64,000 nucleotides of DNA from an uncultured Candidatus Saccharibacteria bacterium (lineage in GTDB: Bacteria > Patescibacteriota > Saccharimonadia > Saccharimonadales > SZUA-47). Positions 8,059 through 57,367 of the stretch are shown piece after piece. The first letter of the stretch is position 1; each line of letters opens with the position of its first letter. The translations under genes and the position numbers were made by a program. The DNA is taken from contig CAYQPN010000002.1 of the NCBI GenBank assembly GCA_964419675.1, positions 3,073 through 67,072 on the forward strand, in the 5' to 3' direction. The notes under the pieces were generated by a model that was given only the letters and a program-made list of their open reading frames with translations, ran no database searches and was not told the DNA's origin.

Positions 8059-8394
8059 CTAAGCCCAAGTTCTGTAAAAATAGAACACCACAATAACACC
8101 GAGGGAGGTTGATAATAAAATATCTCCAAAGCTAAGTTGACCAATTCCAGACATCAGAAGAAGTAAAACAGTGATGCTTGACATACTAAAAATTAACGAC
8201 TTAGAGAATAAACTTCGTGTTTTTAATAGTTTCTTTGAAACAAAAAGCATCCCAAACGAGAGAGATATCCAAAAAAGTACCACCGGAACAAAAACATATG
8301 CGATGTTTCTATCTCTAGGGCTAACAGTAAACAGGAACAATACTAAAGACGAAAAAGTAGAAAAGCTAATTAAAAACAGGTTTCTTTCTTTCAC
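8059..8394 (-). CDS. Hypothetical integral membrane protein
   Basis: 111-aa ORF with 3-4 hydrophobic helices; first gene of the minus-strand run ending at 4762. Confidence 0.55.
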   Translation of the reverse strand: MKERNLFLISFSTFSSLVLFLFTVSPRDRNIAYVFVPVVLFWISLSFGMLFVSKKLLKTRSLFSKSLIFSMSSITVLLLLMSGIGQLSFGDILLSTSLGVIVVFYFYRTWA

Positions 8395-8616: not shown

Positions 8617-9296
8617 ACTTTGATTCTTTTTGTATTTTTATCGAATCACGAGTTCAGAATAGCAAATTTTATACATAATGTCAATAGTACTTATGTTAAT
8701 TTTCTATTGTAATTATTACTACTTTACTTCTTGATTCGTTGCCTTTTTAACTCTGTTATATATTTTATACTACTTATTTTTTACAACTATAATTTTTTTA
8801 TAAAATCAGTTTTGTTGTATTAAAATTATCACATTTACAATGTTTTCTCCGAACAACAAATTATCTTAACTTGCGCTAAATATATGCTTGGACTGTTGTC
8901 AATCAATAGTACTCTAAGAAGTAACTTAAGGGCATTTATCTTAACTTAAGTTAGTCGGTGTTATTTATAAGCCATAACTTATCTTAATGACCCTTATTAG
9001 TTCACTTGGGGGGGGTTAATCACGGCTATCAGACTAGACTAAACAGAATCGCTGAGGCATTCTAAGGTTGCTTCCCTACTCTAATTGCATAGATATCGCT
9101 TATTCTCCTGGGTACTTGATGCTTTGTTTTTCTATAATTATTTATAAAGTACAATGCTCTTTGGGTATAGCTGATTCTGTAATAACTACCCCCTCTTTCT
9201 TTACTAAAAATGGTTTTGAGTGAACCCAGAAACTGTGGTTTTGCGGTTAAAGTTTCAGCACTATATTTAGGCTTTAAAAAAACTCTAAAATATATA

Positions 9297-28232: not shown

Positions 28233-28308
28233 TGGTGATCCGGGTGGGAGTCGAACCTACAACCTTTTCCTTAGGACGGAACTGCTCTATCCATTGAGCT
28301 ACCGGACC
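28233..28308 (-). tRNA. tRNA-Arg (anticodon CCT), CCA encoded
   Basis: Revcomp GGTCCGGTAGCTCAATGGATAGAGCAGTTCCGTCCTAAGGAAAAGGTTGTAGGTTCGACTCCCACCCGGATCACCA. Anticodon loop GTCCTAA. A51-C63 mismatch in the T-stem. Confidence 0.88.
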
Positions 28309-28451
28309 ACATATCACACTATCTATTATAAAGGTTCGACTCCGAGTCGGCCACAGTCTTACTTGCAACAAAGTCGCAAATCAGCTGTCGCCACACCTCG
28401 ACTCGGCCAAGGCCGGGTCTCCGGTCTTGCAAAAGTCCACAGGACTTTTTC
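28309..28451 (-). repeat. Structured element between a tRNA-Arg pseudo-copy and tRNA-Arg (element X copy)
   Basis: Starts (minus sense) with hairpin AAAAGTCC-TGTG-GGACTTTT. Contains CTTGGCCGAG, an 8-bp long-range helix CCGAGTCG/CGACTCGG, and a 12-nt inverted copy of the tRNA-Arg T-arm (AGGTTCGACTCC at 28332-28343, plus strand). Confidence 0.5.
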
Positions 28452-29124: not shown

Positions 29125-29160
29125 TACACATATTATACGCTATAGCGTATAATATGTGTA
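29125..29160. promoter_or_regulatory. Perfect 36-bp palindrome: symmetric divergent promoter and/or recombinase or operator site
   Basis: TACACATATTATACGCTATAGCGTATAATATGTGTA is its own reverse complement. Each strand reads TACACA, 17 nt, TATAAT. It lies between divergent ndk and xerC/D-like genes. Confidence 0.6.
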
Positions 29161-45085: not shown

Positions 45086-46078
45086 TTAGGCTGCCTTCTT
45101 TTTATTGCGTCGCCCTGCTTTTGCCTGTGCTAACCCGGGTGTGCCACTGGGTAGACTGTCACCGGGCTGTACGCCATAACCAAGGTCTTTCACTGGCCTC
45201 AAATGTCGTTTTACTTTGCTGGGGTTGGTTGGATCTGGCTCGTCTCCACTATTTCTACGTCTCACTAGTAAGATAAGCCCGCCTAGCACTGAGACTAAAA
45301 CTGTTCCGCCAAGCCATTTTTTTAACTCAGGGCTAATACCGCCAGAGCTACTCCCATGACCTTCAACCATACCTCCAGATGTAGGCGAGGAACTTTCTGG
45401 GCCTGTTGTAGTGCCATCGTTTGTAGTCGTGGTTCCTAATACTGTAGTAGTCGTCGACTCTATAGTAGTGCTAGTAGTTGGCGACGTGGTAGTGGTACTA
45501 GTAGTGGTAGTGACGGGGGCGGTGGTAGTTGTGACTTTTTGTGGTTTTGTGGTTGTTGGTGCTGGTGGCTGTGTAGTTGTTGGTGGGGGCGATGTTGTTG
45601 GAGGTGGGGGTGGGTTAGGGCCACACACAGGTTCTCCATTATGATAACGACCTTGATAATACCAACCAATAAAGTATGGGTCACAAATCTCATCAGCATG
45701 TGCAGTACTTACCCCACCTGCAAACGACGCTAAAAGTAGTGCAAAGGCACCAGCTGCTTTAGCCTTGTTTTCAGATAAAAGTTCTATAAGTCTATCCCAG
45801 GCCCCTACTTCTTGCATCTGTGCAATAACTTCTGCGTTAAAACCACTTGTCAGCTCCTCAATCGTAGCAATTTCTCCCAAAGCAAAGGTTGAATCAACAG
45901 GCCCGGTCTGCCCTAGTTCCTCAAGCCACTGTCCATATTCCATACCAAATCTTTCATTCTGAGCTGTAAGTCTAAGATCTTGAGCAACGGTGTCAAAAGG
46001 GTTCGGTGGCATGCCAGCAATAGTTAGCCCCTGGATTTCCATGGTTATGCTGTCTGGTGAGGTTAAAGTTGAGCTCAT
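45086..46078 (-). CDS. P/T-rich membrane protein, tandem paralog A
   Basis: 330-aa ORF with SD AAGGA 8 nt before the ATG. About 110-aa N-terminal soluble domain, a hydrophobic segment ending AHA, the Cys motif DEICDPYFIGWYYQGRYHNGEPVCGP, a P/T-rich stalk, a second TM and a basic tail. Confidence 0.75.
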   Translation of the reverse strand: MSSTLTSPDSITMEIQGLTIAGMPPNPFDTVAQDLRLTAQNERFGMEYGQWLEELGQTGPVDSTFALGEIATIEELTSGFNAEVIAQMQEVGAWDRLIELLSENKAKAAGAFALLLASFAGGVSTAHADEICDPYFIGWYYQGRYHNGEPVCGPNPPPPPTTSPPPTTTQPPAPTTTKPQKVTTTTAPVTTTTSTTTTSPTTSTTIESTTTTVLGTTTTNDGTTTGPESSSPTSGGMVEGHGSSSGGISPELKKWLGGTVLVSVLGGLILLVRRRNSGDEPDPTNPSKVKRHLRPVKDLGYGVQPGDSLPSGTPGLAQAKAGRRNKKKAA

Positions 46079-46165
46079 CTTTAGTTTCCTTTGTTGGGGG
46101 TTATTTAATAATAATCGCCCTATATCCTTATTTATACCAGTGGCTTATCTGTTTGTAAACTTAAA
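45571..46165. repeat. 595-bp perfect direct repeat, copy 1
   Basis: Identical by line-by-line comparison to 46391-46985 (offset 820 bp). Covers the promoter, the 5' UTR and the first ~170 codons. Confidence 0.95.
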
Positions 46166-46898
46166 AGCGAGGACGCAAATAGGGGTTTCTTTCTGTGTTA
46201 ACCACAAACTCATCACCTTGCCATACCAAATCTGCATAAACCCTCTCTCTTACGGGCATTACCTCTAGATCTGTCAATATGGTCGTGGTAGTAGTAGATG
46301 GTGTCGTGTCTGTTGGAGTCGTCGGGGGTGGTGTGGTTATTGGTGGTTTGGTTGTTGGAGGCGTAATGGTGGGTGGCTTAGTTGTCGGGGGTGTAGTTGT
46401 TGGTGGGGGCGATGTTGTTGGAGGTGGGGGTGGGTTAGGGCCACACACAGGTTCTCCATTATGATAACGACCTTGATAATACCAACCAATAAAGTATGGG
46501 TCACAAATCTCATCAGCATGTGCAGTACTTACCCCACCTGCAAACGACGCTAAAAGTAGTGCAAAGGCACCAGCTGCTTTAGCCTTGTTTTCAGATAAAA
46601 GTTCTATAAGTCTATCCCAGGCCCCTACTTCTTGCATCTGTGCAATAACTTCTGCGTTAAAACCACTTGTCAGCTCCTCAATCGTAGCAATTTCTCCCAA
46701 AGCAAAGGTTGAATCAACAGGCCCGGTCTGCCCTAGTTCCTCAAGCCACTGTCCATATTCCATACCAAATCTTTCATTCTGAGCTGTAAGTCTAAGATCT
46801 TGAGCAACGGTGTCAAAAGGGTTCGGTGGCATGCCAGCAATAGTTAGCCCCTGGATTTCCATGGTTATGCTGTCTGGTGAGGTTAAAGTTGAGCTCAT
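46161..46898 (-). CDS. P/T-rich protein, tandem paralog B (no C-terminal TM)
   Basis: 245-aa ORF. Its first ~170 aa are identical to paralog A. The PTTKPP-type repeats diverge and the unique 40-aa C-terminus lacks a TM. Confidence 0.7.
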   Translation of the reverse strand: MSSTLTSPDSITMEIQGLTIAGMPPNPFDTVAQDLRLTAQNERFGMEYGQWLEELGQTGPVDSTFALGEIATIEELTSGFNAEVIAQMQEVGAWDRLIELLSENKAKAAGAFALLLASFAGGVSTAHADEICDPYFIGWYYQGRYHNGEPVCGPNPPPPPTTSPPPTTTPPTTKPPTITPPTTKPPITTPPPTTPTDTTPSTTTTTILTDLEVMPVRERVYADLVWQGDEFVVNTERNPYLRPRF

Positions 46899-51456: not shown

Positions 51457-52110
51457 GTGGGCATGTCTACCCATAACCAACAAAGAGATAAACTTAAGTC
51501 CTTTTTCTACTCTAGTACTAGAATCCAGTACAAAAAAAGCGAAATAGTTATTAGACCAGAGGACGAGCCAAGTGGAGTCTACCTCATAGAATGGGGTTAT
51601 GTTAAGGCCACTGTTATGACAAAATATGGTGAAGAAAACCTGCTTCTTGTGCGTGGCAGTGGAAGTATATTTCCGTTAATTTGGGCCTTCACTGGCGAAC
51701 ACCGTAGCGTAACGTACCAGGCGATGGAAGAGACATCGTTATGGCGCGTCAGTAAAGCTGACTATCTTGATTTTCTTCAAAAACACCCTGATGTTATGCC
51801 CATAATCTTAGACATGGCAATTGAGGCCTACAGACTACACTCTGAACGAGTCATGACCCTCAGCTTTAGAACCGCACGCGAGAGAATAGTTTCATATCTA
51901 CTCGTTTGTGCAAACAGATTTGGTGTAGAACACGGTGATGTAACAGAAATTGTTGCACCTTTCAGACAAACCGATATTGCAAGCTCTGTTAACGCAACAC
52001 GCGAAACAACTAGCCGTGAGCTGAACGCGATGCGTAGAAAAGGCTTAATTACTACTATAAATGGGCATATTGGCCTGGTAGACATTAAGGCATTAGAACA
52101 GCTACTTTGA
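51457..52110 (+). CDS. Crp/Fnr family transcriptional regulator
   Basis: 217-aa ORF with a cNMP-binding-like beta-barrel and a C-terminal HTH (RQTDIASSVNATRETTSRELNAMRRKGLI). Alternative start ATG at 51463. Confidence 0.85.
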   Translation: MGMSTHNQQRDKLKSFFYSSTRIQYKKSEIVIRPEDEPSGVYLIEWGYVKATVMTKYGEENLLLVRGSGSIFPLIWAFTGEHRSVTYQAMEETSLWRVSKADYLDFLQKHPDVMPIILDMAIEAYRLHSERVMTLSFRTARERIVSYLLVCANRFGVEHGDVTEIVAPFRQTDIASSVNATRETTSRELNAMRRKGLITTINGHIGLVDIKALEQLL

Positions 52111-52815
52111 GAATTTGAGCTTATAAAAACGTTCGACGTTACCTTTGGCGCCTGCGACTTGGCTGTCGGCTTTGCCTAAAGTGATAAAATTATTATTGCT
52201 CAGCCAGTTTTCAAAATCTTTCAAGATATTACGCCGTATTGCGCTATTTTTGATAATACCCTTATTAATTTGACTTTTACCTGCCTCAAATTGAGGTTTA
52301 CACATTATGATTAGTTGCGAGTCTTTAGTCACGAGTCTAGAGATAGCAGGAAGCACTTGAGTTAAAGATATAAAGCTAACGTCAGCAACGACTATGTCTA
52401 TCTTTTCTTTAGTTTTAAAATCACGAATATCGGTTTTTTCATGCAGATCAATTTTAGGGTTATCACGAAGTTTCGGGTGCAACTGATCTGTACCTACATC
52501 AACTGCAATAACCTTTTTTGCGCCATGAATTAAAGCAAATTGAGTAAAACCACCAGTGCTACTACCAACGTCCAAAACAACTTTATCCCTAAAATCTATT
52601 TTAAATTGCTCCGCAATCGAAGCTAATTTAAGTGCTGCGCGTGATACATATTGATCACCTTCAACCACCAAAACATCATCGCTGCCAACATTAAAACTAG
52701 TTTTAGTAATAATTTTATTGTTAACCTTCACTAAACCTAACAAAATATAGCTCTCGGCTTGCGACCTACTTGTAACCAGTTTCCGGAACTGTAACTCTTT
52801 ATCAAGTCTGTTCAT
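52102..52815 (-). CDS. tlyA: TlyA family rRNA 2'-O-methyltransferase
   Basis: 237-aa ORF with an S4 domain (RLDKELQFRKLVTSRSQAESYI) and an FtsJ-like MTase (VLDVGSSTGGFTQ). Confidence 0.88.
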   Translation of the reverse strand: MNRLDKELQFRKLVTSRSQAESYILLGLVKVNNKIITKTSFNVGSDDVLVVEGDQYVSRAALKLASIAEQFKIDFRDKVVLDVGSSTGGFTQFALIHGAKKVIAVDVGTDQLHPKLRDNPKIDLHEKTDIRDFKTKEKIDIVVADVSFISLTQVLPAISRLVTKDSQLIIMCKPQFEAGKSQINKGIIKNSAIRRNILKDFENWLSNNNFITLGKADSQVAGAKGNVERFYKLKFSK

Positions 52816-52842
52816 AAATATCCTGTAAAATAATCTTGGTTA

Positions 52843-52935
52843 GTGCAGTTTGGGATGATGAACAAGCACAATTGCCGAAGGCATAGACTATGCTACGACG
52901 AGACAATTTGACGCAGTTCATCACCCAAAGTGTAC
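52843..52935. ncRNA. Structured repeat element E, copy 1 (efp-tlyA spacer)
   Basis: 93 nt, about 74% identical (ungapped hand count 67/90) to 53939-54033. 14-bp helix TTTGGG(A)TGATGAAC / GTTCATCACCCAAA. Conserved blocks AGCACAATTG, CTATG.TACGA and CAATTTGACGCAG. Confidence 0.45.
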
Positions 52936-52948
52936 AACTGCAAATCAT

Positions 52949-53512
52949 TTACTTCTTTCGTTCGCGGTAAGCGTTAGTCTCAGTATCTACCGAAATCTCA
53001 TCTCCAACTTTTATAAATGCTGGGACACGAACACTAATACCTGTTTCAACTGTCGCCTCTTTCAGAACGCTACTGCTTGTGTCTCCTTTTACTACATTTT
53101 CTGTGTAAGTTACTTTTAGATATACGTTTTTGGGTAGTTCTATACTGACGGCATTACCATCAAGCTTCATAGCTTTTACAACATCGCCTTCTTTCAGATA
53201 ACCTGACTGGTCACTGATGACATCTGCGTTTAATTCAATCTGCTCAAACGATTCGTTATCCATAAAGTAGAATTTTGTGCCGTCATTATACAGATATTGA
53301 ATGTTTGAATAAGTTAAATCTACATTATCCAACTGTTCATTGCCTTTAAAGGTTTTTTGCAAAACCCTACCGTCCAGCAAGCTTTTAATTGTGACGTTTA
53401 CTATTGAACCTCCCCGTCCCACAACTTTTTGGGCATACTCAGTAACCCTGTACGGCGTACCGTCCAGGGCAAATACCGCCCCTTTTCTCAGGTCGGTTAC
53501 TCCTAGTGCCAT
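52949..53512 (-). CDS. efp: Elongation factor P
   Basis: 187-aa ORF MALGVTDLRKGAVFALDGTPYRVTEYAQKVVGRGGSIVNVTIKSL. Confidence 0.95.
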   Translation of the reverse strand: MALGVTDLRKGAVFALDGTPYRVTEYAQKVVGRGGSIVNVTIKSLLDGRVLQKTFKGNEQLDNVDLTYSNIQYLYNDGTKFYFMDNESFEQIELNADVISDQSGYLKEGDVVKAMKLDGNAVSIELPKNVYLKVTYTENVVKGDTSSSVLKEATVETGISVRVPAFIKVGDEISVDTETNAYRERKK

Positions 53513-53520
53513 AGATCCTC

Positions 53521-53724
53521 CTAATTACTGCTAACAAAAGGCAATAGTGCCAGGTGTCTAGCTCGTTTGATAGCTTTTGCTAGTTGTCTTTGCTTACTTT
53601 CAGTTAAACCTGTCTTTTTTCTCTGTTCAATTTGTCCATATTGGTTCACGTATCTTTGCAAGGTTTTAAAATCCTTGTAGTCAAAGAACGGGATGTCTGT
53701 CCGGTGTTTAAAAATCTTTGCCAC
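53521..53724 (-). CDS. rpsR: 30S ribosomal protein S18
   Basis: 67-aa ORF ...[49 protein letters not shown]. Confidence 0.93.
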
Positions 53725-53938
53725 TTAAGTTCTCCTTATTTGCGCAGACGATTTTTAGAGTGGTCATTTACTTTACTCTTGCGACAATTTTACCAGCTGT
53801 ATAGTTTATACACCTATCTAAAATGTGCTCGGACTAAAGCAAATGACACTTGGCAAAAAAGTCGCTGCTTCTCTGTTGTTACTTAATAATTTGTTAATTC
53901 TGAAGTATTTTGAGCAATCTTTTAAGGAATTTTGGGTT

Positions 53939-54033
53939 GTGCAGTCTGGGATGGAGACCGAGCACAATTGGTGAAATCGTACGCTATGGTACGATGAACC
54001 AATTTGACGCAGGTATCCGCCCAGAATGTGCAC
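53939..54033. ncRNA. Structured repeat element E, copy 2 (ssb-rpsR spacer)
   Basis: Homolog of 52843-52935. The equivalent helix TCTGGG(A)TGGAGACC / GGTATCCGCCCAGA has compensatory changes. The 73-aa ORF at 53818-54039 over it is judged spurious. Confidence 0.45.
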
Positions 54034-54044
54034 CCACAAATTTC

Positions 54045-54524
54045 TTAAAAAGGGATGTCGTCAAGATTTATAGGCTCGTCGCCTAAATCCTCAACTTCAA
54101 CGTCTTCTTTTTTCTTCGTAGATTTTGCTGGTGCGTCAGATTCATCTGAAGCTGAAGACGAACTTGGTGCTGAGCTTTCGCCAGCATTCCTGTCTCTGTC
54201 TCCGCCTACAAAATTAAAGTCTTCTACTACAACTTCTACCTTTGAGCGTTTTTGGCCTTCTTGTTCCCATGACCGTTGTTGCAAGCGTCCTGAGACCAAA
54301 ATGCCACTACCCTTTTTCATGTATTGGTTAATTATTTCCGCTGGTTTGCCCCAAATATTACAGTCAATGTAGTCAACTGCTTCTTGTTGCTCACCGCTAG
54401 CGTTCTTCCAACTGCGGTTAACCGCTAGTGAAAACCCACATACATTCTGACCGTTTGGTGTTGTTCGTAGCTCGGGGTCCCTAGTAAGATTCCCCATCAA
54501 AACAACTTTATTAAATCCTCTCAT
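54045..54524 (-). CDS. ssb: Single-stranded DNA-binding protein
   Basis: 159-aa ORF with the OB fold MRGFNKVVLMGNLTRDPELRTTPNG and the acidic tip DDIPF. Confidence 0.95.
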   Translation of the reverse strand: MRGFNKVVLMGNLTRDPELRTTPNGQNVCGFSLAVNRSWKNASGEQQEAVDYIDCNIWGKPAEIINQYMKKGSGILVSGRLQQRSWEQEGQKRSKVEVVVEDFNFVGGDRDRNAGESSAPSSSSASDESDAPAKSTKKKEDVEVEDLGDEPINLDDIPF

Positions 54525-54581
54525 CGTACCTCCTTATTTATAGTTCCACGTCGTTTACAATTTCATTCTACCCCACTTTGC

Positions 54582-54679
54582 TTGGTTTCTGAGCATATGT
54601 GACTCAGTAAACTAAAAGCGAAGTGCAGGCCGTTTCGGCCGTAGCGGTTTACTGAGTTACTTGTGCTCAGATAAACCAA
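54582..54679. other. 98-nt extended hairpin in the rpsF-ssb spacer
   Basis: Stacked helices TTGGTTT/AAACCAA, CTGAGCA/TGCTCAG and ACTCAGTAAAC/GTTTACTGAGT, with apical GGCCG-TTT-CGGCC. Confidence 0.5.
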
Positions 54680-54688
54680 CTTCACCCT

Positions 54689-55078
54689 CTATTCTTCTTC
54701 GTTATCGTCATCTTCGTCATCACGATCACTGTCGCCACCCTTGGCTATTCGCTTATCGCGATTAACTTTCATAGCTTCAGCTTTAGCAATGGCTTTCACG
54801 TCAACTCTAGTCAACAAGAAACGAATTACTTCGTCTGTAATGTTCAAACCATCATTGATTTTTTTAACGCCAGCTGTTGGCAATTCTAAGCTGTAAAATA
54901 CGTATACAGCATGTTCATGTCCAGCTATTTTGTAGGCTAGCTTACGCTTACCCCAATTGTCGGTTGCTTTGATACTTCCTTTACTAGCTGATACAAGTTT
55001 CTCAACCTGCGCAGACGCCTTTTCTAGATCAATTTCTAGATCAGGATGATAAAGTACAGCAAGTTCATATTGCTCCAT
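54689..55078 (-). CDS. rpsF: 30S ribosomal protein S6 (acidic C-terminal tail)
   Basis: 129-aa ORF MEQYELAVLYHPDLE...WGKRKLAYKI..., tail DSDRDDEDDDNEEE. Confidence 0.93.
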   Translation of the reverse strand: MEQYELAVLYHPDLEIDLEKASAQVEKLVSASKGSIKATDNWGKRKLAYKIAGHEHAVYVFYSLELPTAGVKKINDGLNITDEVIRFLLTRVDVKAIAKAEAMKVNRDKRIAKGGDSDRDDEDDDNEEE

Positions 55079-55180
55079 CTAAATGTTTTCTCCTTTCTTC
55101 GGTTTATAACTTACGCGCCTAAGAGCCGTAAGCTAAAGTTAATTATTACAGATGTAATTATACTCTATAACAGATAAAAA

Positions 55181-57367
55181 TCAAAGTTCTTCTAGCGCTT
55201 GGTCGGCTTCGCTCAATGGCTCGACCCCCAAATTGAATACTTCTGAGGTAGAAGATACCAGTACATCGCGTGGTTTTGAACCATCTGCCTGGCCTACAAT
55301 TCCCTGTTCTTCCATCATGTCTATCAGACGTGATGCCCTGCCGTAACCTATCCTTAGACGGCGTTGTAGCAAGCTTGTACTAGCTTTTCGGTTGTCTACC
55401 ACTACTTGTACGGCATCCTTCCATAAGTCATCGTCTGAGTCCATCGGCGCATGATCTGGCACTATCCCGCCCTTACCGTTAAGTTGTACTGGTTGGCTAA
55501 CAACCTCATCATCATATTGTGGTGGACGCTGGGTACGAAGAAAATCGTTAACTCTTACTATTTCTTCATTGGTAATCAAAGCACCCTGCACACGAATAGG
55601 TTTTGGCATTTCGGTTACCTTGAATAACATATCACCCATTCCAAGTAGCTTCTCTGCACCCATAGAATCAATAATGATATTGCTGTTAACTTGACCAGCT
55701 ACAGTAAATGCGATTCTAGCCGGTACGTTGGCCTTGATTAGTCCGGTAATTACGTCTGCGCTTGGCCTCTGAGTTGCAAGCACCAAATGTATTCCGGCTG
55801 CGCGAGCTTTTTGAGCTATTCTAACTACCAAAGCCTCTACATCCCGGGCAGCCATCATCATCAAATCGGCTAGCTCATCAATGACAATAACAATGTATGG
55901 CATTGAGTCATTATCGGGTAGACTATTGTATTCTTCTATGTTGCGTTTGCTTGCTTCAGCAAATGTGCGCAGACGCCTTTCCATTTCTGACACTGCCCAT
56001 TTTAGCGCACTAATACATTTTTCTGGCTCCGTAATAACGGGAGTAAGAAGATGCGGGATATCTTTATAAGAGGTTAACTCAACCTGCTTAGGGTCAACCA
56101 AAATTAGCTTTAAGTCTGCTGGGCTATTTTTGTATAAAAGGCTTGTTAGCAGCGTGTTAATCATCACTGACTTACCCGACCCAGTTTGACCAGCAATCAA
56201 AAGGTGAGGCATTTTGTCTAGTGAAGCCAATACGGGCTGACCAGCTATGTCCCTACCCACTACAAAACTTAAATGTTCTGTATCATTAACCCAACGTTTA
56301 TCTTCGATTACGCCTGCAAGTCGTACTGTTGCGGCCTTGATGTTTGGCACTTCTATTCCAACAGCTCTCTTGCCTGGTATAGGTGCTTCAATCCTGATAC
56401 TTTGTGCCGCTAAGTTTAGCGATAGTTCTTTATCCAAGGCTGAAATCTTGCTTAATTTAGTCCCGGCCGGTGGTTTTAGTGTAAATTGCGTAACCCTTGG
56501 CCCAACATTAGCCCCTTCCATTTCTACTTCAATATTAAAGTTAGAAAATGTATCTTTGATAATCTCTGCATTAGTATTTACATCACCAGGGTCTGCCTTA
56601 TCCTGCTTTTTTAACAATAAATCTACAGTAGGTAGTTGCCAATTTGGGTCTCTGGCTTCAGTTAGAGCCTCGTGATTTTCTTCAGGCGATAATTTAGGCG
56701 CAAAAGTGTTTTTTAGCGTACTTCTGCCGGAATTATGCTCAACAGGAACTCCTTCATTCAGCTGAAAACCTGGAGCGCCTTCAGCTTTTTCTTTCAGCGT
56801 GCTAAGGTCACTATCTTCGTCCGTTGATTTACGTTGAAATGGCTTAAGAAAAATGTATAGCGGTATTGAAAAAGTCCAGCATGTTGCAAGTAATGTAAGT
56901 ACAAGAAACAGAATGCTGGCTGGCAATTGATCCAGCGCGGCCAGCACGGCACCGCCTACTATTCTACCGGCACCACCACCTTCACCGCCAGCAGTAAGAC
57001 CCGCTGCTGACTTGCCAACAAAAACTACATGAAGCCAGGCTGATAACGCTAACAATAGGCTTCCCATACTAAAAATTCTGCTAATCGGAAGATTGTGTTC
57101 CTCGGACTTTAGTTTGTGGACTCCCCAATAAGCAAGTGCCACTGGTGATAAATAGGCAGCCAGCCCTAAAACAGACTCAACAATATCAAACATGCCAACT
57201 GGCAAGCTCCCACCCGTACCAAAACCACCCAATAAAAGAAAAACCGCTGCCACAATCATTAACACTCCGCCGGCCTGTCTAACAAACATGTTAGGCTCGC
57301 GCGGAACTTGATTTACTTTCTTCTTAGAAGTTTGTCTTTTGTTTGATCGTCTTTTTCTTTTTGACAT
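55181..57367 (-). CDS. ftsK: DNA translocase FtsK/SpoIIIE
   Basis: 728-aa ORF with N-terminal TM helices, LLIAGQTGSGKSV, IVIDELADLM and a C-terminal gamma wHTH domain. Confidence 0.93.
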   Translation of the reverse strand: MSKRKRRSNKRQTSKKKVNQVPREPNMFVRQAGGVLMIVAAVFLLLGGFGTGGSLPVGMFDIVESVLGLAAYLSPVALAYWGVHKLKSEEHNLPISRIFSMGSLLLALSAWLHVVFVGKSAAGLTAGGEGGGAGRIVGGAVLAALDQLPASILFLVLTLLATCWTFSIPLYIFLKPFQRKSTDEDSDLSTLKEKAEGAPGFQLNEGVPVEHNSGRSTLKNTFAPKLSPEENHEALTEARDPNWQLPTVDLLLKKQDKADPGDVNTNAEIIKDTFSNFNIEVEMEGANVGPRVTQFTLKPPAGTKLSKISALDKELSLNLAAQSIRIEAPIPGKRAVGIEVPNIKAATVRLAGVIEDKRWVNDTEHLSFVVGRDIAGQPVLASLDKMPHLLIAGQTGSGKSVMINTLLTSLLYKNSPADLKLILVDPKQVELTSYKDIPHLLTPVITEPEKCISALKWAVSEMERRLRTFAEASKRNIEEYNSLPDNDSMPYIVIVIDELADLMMMAARDVEALVVRIAQKARAAGIHLVLATQRPSADVITGLIKANVPARIAFTVAGQVNSNIIIDSMGAEKLLGMGDMLFKVTEMPKPIRVQGALITNEEIVRVNDFLRTQRPPQYDDEVVSQPVQLNGKGGIVPDHAPMDSDDDLWKDAVQVVVDNRKASTSLLQRRLRIGYGRASRLIDMMEEQGIVGQADGSKPRDVLVSSTSEVFNLGVEPLSEADQALEEL

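Follow-up and report, generated by a model that had tools for sequence, protein, structure and literature searches.

Palindromic intergenic sequences of several kinds have been described in bacteria, among them the ERIC (IRU) elements, the REP/BIME sequences and REPINs, the attC sites and the Correia and Rickettsia palindromic elements (RPE), while the antisense RNA GadY is encoded on the strand opposite two co-directional genes. Three copies (E1, E2 and E3) of a further element of this general form are found in the efp-tlyA and ssb-rpsR spacers of an uncultured Candidatus Saccharibacteria bacterium, in a 64,000 nt stretch of DNA (contig CAYQPN010000002.1 of assembly GCA_964419675.1, positions 3,073 to 67,072 of the forward strand; hereafter the window, in whose coordinates positions are given unless another locus is named). 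They represent an undescribed family of ~135 nt rod-shaped structured elements specific to the Saccharibacteria, which is new as a family but belongs to kinds already known (conserved structured intergenic hairpin elements or small RNAs). No earlier description of the family was found in searches of Rfam and of the literature.

The ERIC elements are likewise imperfect palindromes of ~127-135 nt situated in intergenic regions that are transcribed, inside operons or at their ends, and kept at orthologous sites, and orientation-dependent effects on the neighbouring mRNAs have been reported for them. They differ in their host phylum, and the E family is set apart by only 1-4 diverged copies per genome (~70% identical), by a conserved core inside variable outer stems and by an almost uniform antisense placement. 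ERIC is taken here as an analogue rather than as the parent family, from which the E family is separated by description and by its presence only in Saccharibacteria-type records. REP/BIME sequences and REPINs are also extragenic palindromes at the 3' ends of genes, occurring in tandem clusters, inherited vertically over long periods and forming single-strand hairpins. The arms of the E elements, however, carry different bulges and do not correspond to two symmetric REPs, they have no terminal GTAG-like motif and their copy number is very low. The sole signal of a Y1 transposase, the enzyme class of the RAYTs, in the syntenic loci from relatives (L001-L011; further loci are numbered in the same way) is a faint Pfam match in L001/L002.

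With the attC sites, which are imperfect palindromes of 60-140 nt, the E elements share a start at the upstream stop codon, folding of the antisense strand, extrahelical bases and small ORFs nearby. This is a resemblance only, the upstream genes being core housekeeping genes. The attC sites conserve their ends (RYYYAAC/GTTRRRY) around a varying interior, whereas the reverse is observed in the E family, where the copies after yebC, rpsI, atpC, tsf, rplU and a tRNA have unrelated ends. Furthermore, no tyrosine recombinase is found among the called genes of the syntenic loci, and the tandem arrays of L049 consist of hairpins without ORFs, with no cassettes. The Correia elements, RPE and similar miniature inverted-repeat transposable elements (MITEs), including those derived from IS630, are short palindromic DNAs of compact genomes that yield RNA hairpins if transcribed. 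The E family differs from these in having neither conserved terminal inverted repeats nor a multi-copy burst and in the strong purifying selection at its orthologous sites; its outer stems differ completely by context and no consistent flanking duplication is observed. A candidate target-site duplication of E1 (ATGA...ATGA) was rejected, as it is not kept in the orthologue in L036. GadY lies on the opposite strand between co-directional genes and overlaps the upstream one at its 3' end, an arrangement required for directing the processing of an operon mRNA. GadY is, however, restricted to one locus, for which promoter and transcript are known, whereas the module described here recurs at many unrelated operons and has been read from sequence alone. 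Terminators are also stable hairpins located directly after stop codons at operon ends, and a few E copies are flanked by A- or U-tracts, but the E element spans 135 nt with three conserved modules, most copies have no U-tract and many are located inside operons before the next ribosome-binding site.

Homology, conserved structure and folding strand

E1 and E2 had been proposed to be homologous in a preliminary description of this locus, where 67 identities over 90 nt were counted. When the two are aligned without gaps, offset by 1096 nt, 69 of 93 positions are identical (52843-52935 versus 53939-54031), more than 10 standard deviations above the similarity of random pairs of 93 nt segments of the window (mean 24.0, standard deviation 4.3, maximum 47 in 200,000 trials), and all the conserved blocks listed at that time are present in both elements. 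A repeat finder and a covariance model extend the similarity beyond the coordinates originally given, to 123-138 nt. Two features are new relative to the preliminary description, the third copy E3 and the outer stems that extend to the ssb and efp stop codons.

Homologues in other genomes, on which the proposal had been made to depend, are numerous. Scanning of 185,579 species-representative genomes with a 23-base pattern taken from the conserved blocks gave 25 matches, of which 21 are true members, almost all in Saccharibacteria/Saccharimonadales assemblies; in metagenomes, 13 of 17 matches to the pattern are true members. The family comprises ~35 members in total, nearly all from Candidatus Saccharibacteria; a single genome match carries a Gammaproteobacteria label, and the contig concerned is thought to be mis-binned. 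At most two pattern matches occur per species-representative genome, and two genomes contain two copies at different loci. A search of the window with R1, a covariance model derived from 24 homologues, yielded no copy beyond E1-E3 even when its speed filters were disabled; the mutual identity of these three is 72% or less. Viral contigs (pattern scan) and phages and plasmids (BLAST) yielded no family matches. The elements had been described as unlike any known family, in agreement with the absence of Rfam 15 matches for E1, E2 and E3 at gathering thresholds and for the region 52700-54700 even at E<=10; in eleven related loci, the Rfam matches are restricted to rRNA, tRNA and a group II intron fragment. 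Comparison with SRP RNA, 6S RNA, Y RNA, the hairpin and twister ribozymes and the GGA sites of CsrA revealed no defining feature of any of these and no Rfam support. A likeness to 16S rRNA (UGACGC..GAAAGC..GAGCA) was rejected as mimicry as it sits in a variable helix, and a conserved peptide was rejected as the frames through the E1 and E2 reverse complements differ and one is interrupted.

Each full-length copy folds into one long irregular hairpin, as had been proposed, with plus-strand free energies at z-scores of -4.7 (E1) and -7.4 (E2) (Table 1), and the weaker minus-strand folds reach -36.3 (E1) and -46.7 kcal/mol (E2). RNAalifold predicts 45 pairs from 24 sequences, 26 of which show compensatory change on both sides. 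In an alignment of 35 sequences, which was fitted to the model and is thus biased toward the structure but agrees with an independent MAFFT alignment, 96.0% of the cells contain standard pairs and 30 of the 45 pairs have changed on both sides. The covariation score of 0.508, as opposed to 0.170 after shuffling, was reached by none of 500 shuffles, and sliding the 3' partners by 1-3 columns as a control reduced pairing to 37-44%. The helices, compensatory changes, retained bulged A and plus-strand G-T pairs noted earlier in E1 and E2 alone are real and are backed by this family alignment.

The rod is composed of a variable outer stem and three conserved modules. The outer stem, of up to ~20 bp, is locus-specific, fast-evolving and the least conserved part of the element. 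It is followed by a basal module, in which GUGCA/UGUGC with a conserved tandem U·G/G·U and a 1x1 G/A loop leads into UUUGGG-A-UG/CG-CCCAAA, where a bulged A and a U·G pair lie within the core GGG-A-UG/CGCCC; the columns of this module are invariant or nearly so, and its G·U pairs are kept in 31-33 of the 35 sequences. A covarying helix separates it from the middle module, an irregular helix with a bulged C and A and a GA/GCA internal loop, in which GA-GCA-C-A is invariant opposite U-UG-A-C-GCA-G (in summary form GAGCACA/UUGNCGCAG). The short stem of the apical domain contains an invariant GUA/UAC, the surrounding pairs (61-67/76-82 of the 35-sequence alignment) covary, and the tandem G·A in this domain is read from the alignment. 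In total, 33 positions are invariant across the family. The three modules resemble recognition sites for a trans-acting factor, probably a protein, and the strong covariation, the conserved G·U and G·A motifs, the purine-rich bulges and the long-term selection together suggest a functional nucleic acid recognised by such a factor. Covariation, an assignable strand and conservation beyond neutral expectation are the general criteria of a conserved structured RNA motif, and all three are observed here.

The strand that folds can be deduced from the pattern of substitution. Over all pairs, 1303 cells are Watson-Crick, 173 G·U, 16 A·C and 46 other, and when the fixed G·U columns are left aside 78 G·U remain versus 16 A·C. 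Pairing falls from 96.0% to 85.8% when the alignment is read on the opposite strand, and the unpaired residues are rich in purines (A 470, G 254, U 194, C 131). The excess of G·U, the better pairing and the purine-rich loops indicate that the folded molecule has the plus-strand sequence of the window for E1 and E2, in support of the strand weakly favoured at the outset, when an antisense RNA or a DNA-level element was envisaged, and the minus-strand sequence for E3.

The elements are maintained by selection. Between the window and the loci L036, L011 and L005, four-fold degenerate third-codon positions of tlyA or ssb (an approximate measure) show 34-40% identity, while the elements are 68-83% identical, similar to the first and second codon positions. 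As the synonymous sites are saturated, this identity reflects purifying selection and rules out a neutral relic. Where the stem of an ssb-type copy runs over the Phe and stop codons of ssb, a compensatory change extends into the gene, the synonymous TTT to TTC change of the Phe codon in L039 being matched in the 5' arm of the element, where UUUUAA has become UUCUAA.

Placement and polarity of the copies

The folded strand is antisense to the co-directional flanking genes in ~14 independent contexts and is sense only upstream of rpsR (~14 versus one; two-sided binomial p ~0.001, our own arithmetic). The 3' end of the hairpin overlaps the upstream stop codon or lies 0-4 nt from it, and the element, located at an operon end or junction, takes up the spacer there, the base of its stem reaching that codon. 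The contexts include ssb (at least 16 loci other than the window, with full-length copies directly after the gene in L005/L006 and L011), efp (the window and L036), the downstream side of rpsR (L016, L045 and L051), RNase J (L001 and L048), nrdR, yebC (two genomes), rpsI, tsf (two genomes), rplU, a KH-domain gene inside the rpsP-trmD operon, a tRNA whose 3' end is abutted by the element and three more. A copy at atpC is located between convergent genes, and its orientation is ambiguous. When empty sites for the tsf, rpsI, rplU, atpC, yebC, nrdR and KH contexts were sought in the window for comparison, none of these genes was found there.

All genes in the neighbourhood of E1-E3 are encoded on the minus strand (Table 1). 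E1 occupies the region between the efp stop codon and the tlyA start, and its outer stem GUAAAAU/AUUUAC spans the complement of that stop codon. The efp product shows up to 100% identity to Saccharibacteria EF-P proteins, and in most Saccharibacteria efp and tlyA abut directly, with a spacing of 0-21 nt in L013, L014, L016, L018, L030 and L032; the two genes are separated by E1 in the window and in L036, where an orthologue with 83% identity occurs at the same junction. E2 directly follows the ssb stop codon, and its outer stem CUUUUAAGG/UCUUAAAAAG takes in the final ssb codons together with the stop. E3, on the gene (sense) strand, ends ~12 nt before the rpsR Shine-Dalgarno sequence and has orthologues upstream of rpsR in L008, L011 and L039. 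It retains the middle core and the apical stem but has no basal module, and its base differs from those of E1 and E2; its fold reaches -37.4 kcal/mol versus -29.0 kcal/mol on the opposite strand. E2 and E3 thus form an inverted, divergent pair, which explains the unusual length of the ssb-rpsR spacer noted in the preliminary description.

Table 1. Coordinates of the E elements, their conserved modules, the neighbouring genes and other features of the window
Feature	Position	Strand	Evidence or remark
tRNA-Arg	28233-28308		
Inverted partial copy of tRNA-Arg T-arm region	28332-28350		just upstream of the TATAAT promoter of the tRNA
Palindrome TACACATATTATACGCTA/TAGCGTATAATATGTGTA	29125-29160		perfect, 36 bp; TATAAT on both strands
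Paralogous gene pair	45086-46898		330 and 245 aa
Direct repeat in paralogous pair	45571-45870 and 46391-46690		300 nt, 100% identity
tlyA/FtsJ-like methyltransferase gene, downstream of E1	52102-52815	-	ORF; Pfam S4 and FtsJ in syntenic loci; start at 52815
E1, full-length member	52821-52958	+	model R1 109.8 bits; fold -38.4 kcal/mol, z -4.7
E1 basal module equivalents	52843-52857 and 52922-52935	+	
E1 middle core equivalents	52864-52871 and 52907-52916	+	
efp, upstream neighbour of E1	52949-53512	-	ORF; EF-P homologues; stop codon 52949-52951
rpsR (S18), downstream of E3	53521-53724	-	ORF; Pfam Ribosomal_S18 in syntenic loci
Promoter-like TTCACG-16-TAAAAT	53645-53672	+	inside rpsR
E3, diverged third copy	53749-53859	-	model R1 32.1 bits, E 3.5e-8, minus strand only
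E3 middle core (minus-strand reading)	53824-53830 and 53778-53787	-	GAGCACA and UUGUCGCAAG
E2, full-length member	53917-54054	+	model R1 131.6 bits; fold -57.3 kcal/mol, z -7.4
E2 basal module, 5' strand GUGCAG..UGGGAUG	53939-53953	+	pairs with 54018-54031 (CGCCCAGAAUGUGC)
E2 middle core, 5' strand GAGCACAA	53960-53967	+	opposite UUUGACGCAG (54003-54012)
E2 apical domain	53968-54002	+	covarying 5-6 bp helix, tandem G·A/A·G, short stem, variable loop
ssb, upstream neighbour of E2	54045-54524	-	ORF and translation; stop codon 54045-54047
Hairpin in rpsF-ssb spacer	54583-54678		~96 nt; 25 nt arms, 88% complementary
rpsF	54689-55078	-	ORF

Copies have also been duplicated in tandem. Downstream of rpsB-tsf, L049 contains four abutting copies (1273-1773 of that locus, minus strand), in which the canonical and a second subtype alternate and a conserved linker, AACCAC-NNN-GCGGAAG, is shared, while a dimer is found at the same place in L026. 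In L033, the 5' half of a copy resembling E2 of the window is located beside a full copy of a different subtype. A 'variant B' found after ssb in L001 and, among close relatives, in L003, L008 and L009 has only the 5' arm up to GAGCACAA left, followed by unrelated small hairpins. The arrays, truncated copies and two-locus genomes suggest that the family duplicates, decays and relocates over evolutionary time, with individual copies being kept. Three small hairpins are present in variant B, one of which is GC-rich (GAGAGGGGAUAUUCCCCUCUC) and abuts the ssb stop codon, and its sense strand carries an AAGGAG ribosome-binding site before a possible ORF of 16-17 codons through the remnant.

Several further features were observed around these junctions. 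In L001-L011, the ssb-rpsR, rpsR-efp and efp-tlyA junctions are hot spots of unrelated small ORFs without Pfam domains (71-246 aa), and an Avd/23S-rRNA-IVP-like gene is found at these junctions in one syntenic locus; none of these genes occurs in the window genome. The relatives also contain another repeated sense-strand motif of ~110 nt (GCUCCAGGGAAAAGAGCAGCCGGAACAGGGAAUUUAUUUCACUGUCCCGCGCG...) directly upstream of ssb and sometimes also of rpsR, with sites in L001 (~8990-9080 and 8170-8280), upstream of ssb in L003, L009 and L011 and upstream of rpsR in L003. This motif, which may be a leader, has no Rfam match and does not occur in the window. In L029 (1-1353), a group II intron domain fragment and a LAGLIDADG endonuclease ORF are located downstream of the 16S rRNA 3' end, and a family member occurs 270 nt further on the opposite strand. 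The spacer between rpsF and ssb in the window contains the longest plain inverted repeat of the window, a hairpin that falls outside the E family and is without a genuine counterpart in Rfam, chance matches to miRNA families having been discounted. The apex of this hairpin carries the sense-strand motif CCUGCACUUCGCUUUUAGU, conserved in the rpsF-ssb spacers of relatives, and the 164 nt spacer as a whole also folds better on the plus (antisense) strand (-53.3 versus -45.4 kcal/mol). A rule that all long hairpins of the ssb operon fold antisense was nevertheless rejected, as the rpsF-ssb spacers of relatives are mixed in this respect.

Elsewhere in the window, two adjacent paralogous genes, whose N-terminal halves are identical at the DNA level and which both run into Pro/Thr-rich linkers, look like surface proteins that have been recently duplicated or homogenised by gene conversion. 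A perfect palindrome with TATAAT on both strands could be a bidirectional promoter or operator, and the inverted partial copy of the tRNA-Arg T-arm region may be the remnant of an integration site.

Possible nature and function of the elements

The interpretation that is tentatively preferred, although held with rather less than even confidence, is that the family represents a new structured, probably protein-binding RNA encoded antisense at the ends and junctions of operons. The plus-strand transcript would fold and form a hairpin ribonucleoprotein at the point where the upstream gene ends, and would act there in cis, either in the manner of GadY by marking the junction in the operon mRNA for processing or stabilisation, or by ensuring that antisense transcripts are stopped or destroyed before they enter a highly expressed gene. 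That the folded molecule is an RNA, that it is transcribed and that it functions in either way is inferred from features of the DNA. Tandem sheared G·A and tandem G·U motifs such as those in the apical and basal modules are typical of RNA. The E3-type copies lie in the rpsR leader, which is obligatorily transcribed, in the orientation that folds, so that at least those copies exist as RNA, and the L049 array with its linker looks like a multi-hairpin precursor.

Expression signals weigh against this interpretation. The RNase P RNA, four tRNA loci and rpsF in the window are preceded by perfect TATAAT or TACAAT boxes at 7-10 nt, while only TAAAAT is found at E1 and only TATTTT at E2, and no -10-like hexamer occurs at a constant distance among 30 members. 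A consensus scan of both strands of 52000-55200 revealed no sigma-70-type promoter or intrinsic terminator at E1 or E2, and many ssb-type loci leave 15-40 nt between the base of the stem and the next Shine-Dalgarno sequence, with little room for a promoter. Weak signals and little room are what would be expected of single-stranded DNA or of antisense transcripts made by read-through only. In addition, the sense mRNA certainly carries the reverse-complement hairpin, and it could be this hairpin that functions. No more than four contexts (yebC twice, rpsI and tsf) end in G followed by 3-5 U. Within rpsR, opposite the conserved DFKTL codons, the plus strand carries a promoter-like sequence, and transcripts starting there, if it is active, would run through the E3 reverse complement and then E2. 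Candidate sense-strand promoters within the element were inspected by eye and rejected.

One alternative is that the element acts as single-stranded DNA, as a low-copy domesticated palindrome of the REPIN/RAYT, IS200/IS605-end or attC kind in which an enzyme recognises the plus-strand hairpin and the polarity stems from replication or recombination. This is considered unlikely, despite being consistent with the lack of a convincing promoter or terminator with the copies. The strict polarity relative to co-directional genes could be accommodated, as the minus strand encodes 42 of the 51 long ORFs in the window and the plus-strand GC skew is negative throughout, suggesting co-orientation with replication. 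The folded strand would, however, then be the leading-strand template, which is normally not the exposed strand, whereas IS200/IS605 elements act on the lagging-strand template, and the E3-type copies have the opposite polarity. The L049 and L026 arrays, the truncated copy of L033 and variant B point to duplication and replacement at fixed sites, and variable small ORFs cluster around the elements in relatives, but target-site duplications and near-identical copies are absent, none of the copies occurs in phages, plasmids or viral contigs, and the orthologous copies have been under long-term purifying selection. The geometry is attC-like in that folding takes place on the strand opposite the upstream ORF, with the site beginning at the stop codon of that ORF, and the ssb-type copies end in TTTTAAC...GTTAAAA; such ends are accounted for by the Phe and stop codons of ssb and do not recur in copies from other contexts. 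Conservation lies in the interior while the termini are locus-specific, the reverse of attC sites, transposon ends and REPs. Finally, the faint Y1 transposase match, 10 kb away in L001, speaks for this alternative, but no recombinase is consistently found nearby.

The hairpin may instead function in the sense mRNA, where its reverse complement after the stop codon would serve as a terminator, as a stabiliser of a 3' end or intercistronic region or as an RNase III processing site in highly expressed operons, in the manner of REP and ERIC sequences in mRNA. Although likewise judged improbable, this explanation invokes an RNA whose synthesis is certain and whose folding energy still reaches -36 to -47 kcal/mol, at sites where terminators or stabilisers are expected (after tsf, rpsI, atpC, efp, yebC and the tRNA). 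The stop codon is enclosed by the stem and one compensatory change falls in an ssb codon, four contexts have A-tract/U-tract flanks like those of bidirectional terminators, and the gene after the L049 array appears, from its sequence, to have its own extended -10 promoter. The substitution pattern is nevertheless reversed on this strand, with 173 A·C mismatches and 16 G·U pairs, a lower proportion of standard pairs and pyrimidine-rich loops. No U-tract terminator is predicted, termination would be harmful at the ssb-type loci, where the next Shine-Dalgarno sequence is within 15-40 nt, and a plain stabiliser would not need 33 invariant positions.

A more speculative proposal, to which a still lower likelihood is assigned, is that the most heavily expressed operons are bounded at their 3' ends by the hairpin, which would work on the template (antisense) strand as a boundary module locked in one orientation. 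In an RNA version, the factor-bound antisense structure would terminate or destroy head-on transcripts, replacing the Rho-type suppression of antisense transcription in a tiny genome, while in a DNA version a hairpin in the template strand would be recognised during encounters between replication and transcription.

An autoregulatory leader of a ribosomal protein, such as an S18 or S6:S18 operator of the rpsF-ssb-rpsR operon, is very improbable as an account of the family and could apply to the E3 subtype only. E3 and its orthologues immediately precede the rpsR Shine-Dalgarno sequence on the sense strand, and many members adjoin ribosomal or translation genes, but the large majority of copies, with E1 and E2 among them, fold antisense on the downstream side of genes, so that only the E3-type copies have the position of a 5' untranslated region. 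The contexts also include atpC, nrdR, yebC, RNase J and a tRNA, E3-type homologues are antisense and downstream of rpsR in L045, L051 and L016, and no Rfam leader matches. Chance resemblance or recent neutral duplication of spacer DNA without function, for which only the presence of just three copies in the window speaks, is refuted by the similarity of E1 and E2, the ~35 homologues, the covariation and the purifying selection.

The Saccharibacteria and other bacteria of the candidate phyla radiation have tiny, dense genomes in which almost nothing is known of non-coding RNA. The E element takes up 135 nt of scarce spacer within core operons of translation, replication and energy production or at their ends, and it ranks among the orphan motifs with better-supported structures. 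Even if it proves to be an ordinary, lineage-specific ERIC-like element, the alignment and covariance model are usable for genome annotation and for submission to Rfam. Its near-uniform antisense polarity is unusual and could lift it above ordinary hairpin families, raising the question of whether these bacteria use an antisense ribonucleoprotein, or else a structure at the DNA level, to mark highly expressed genes at their 3' boundaries. Should the hairpin be a boundary module, in either its RNA or its DNA version, it would represent a new kind of polar genome insulator.

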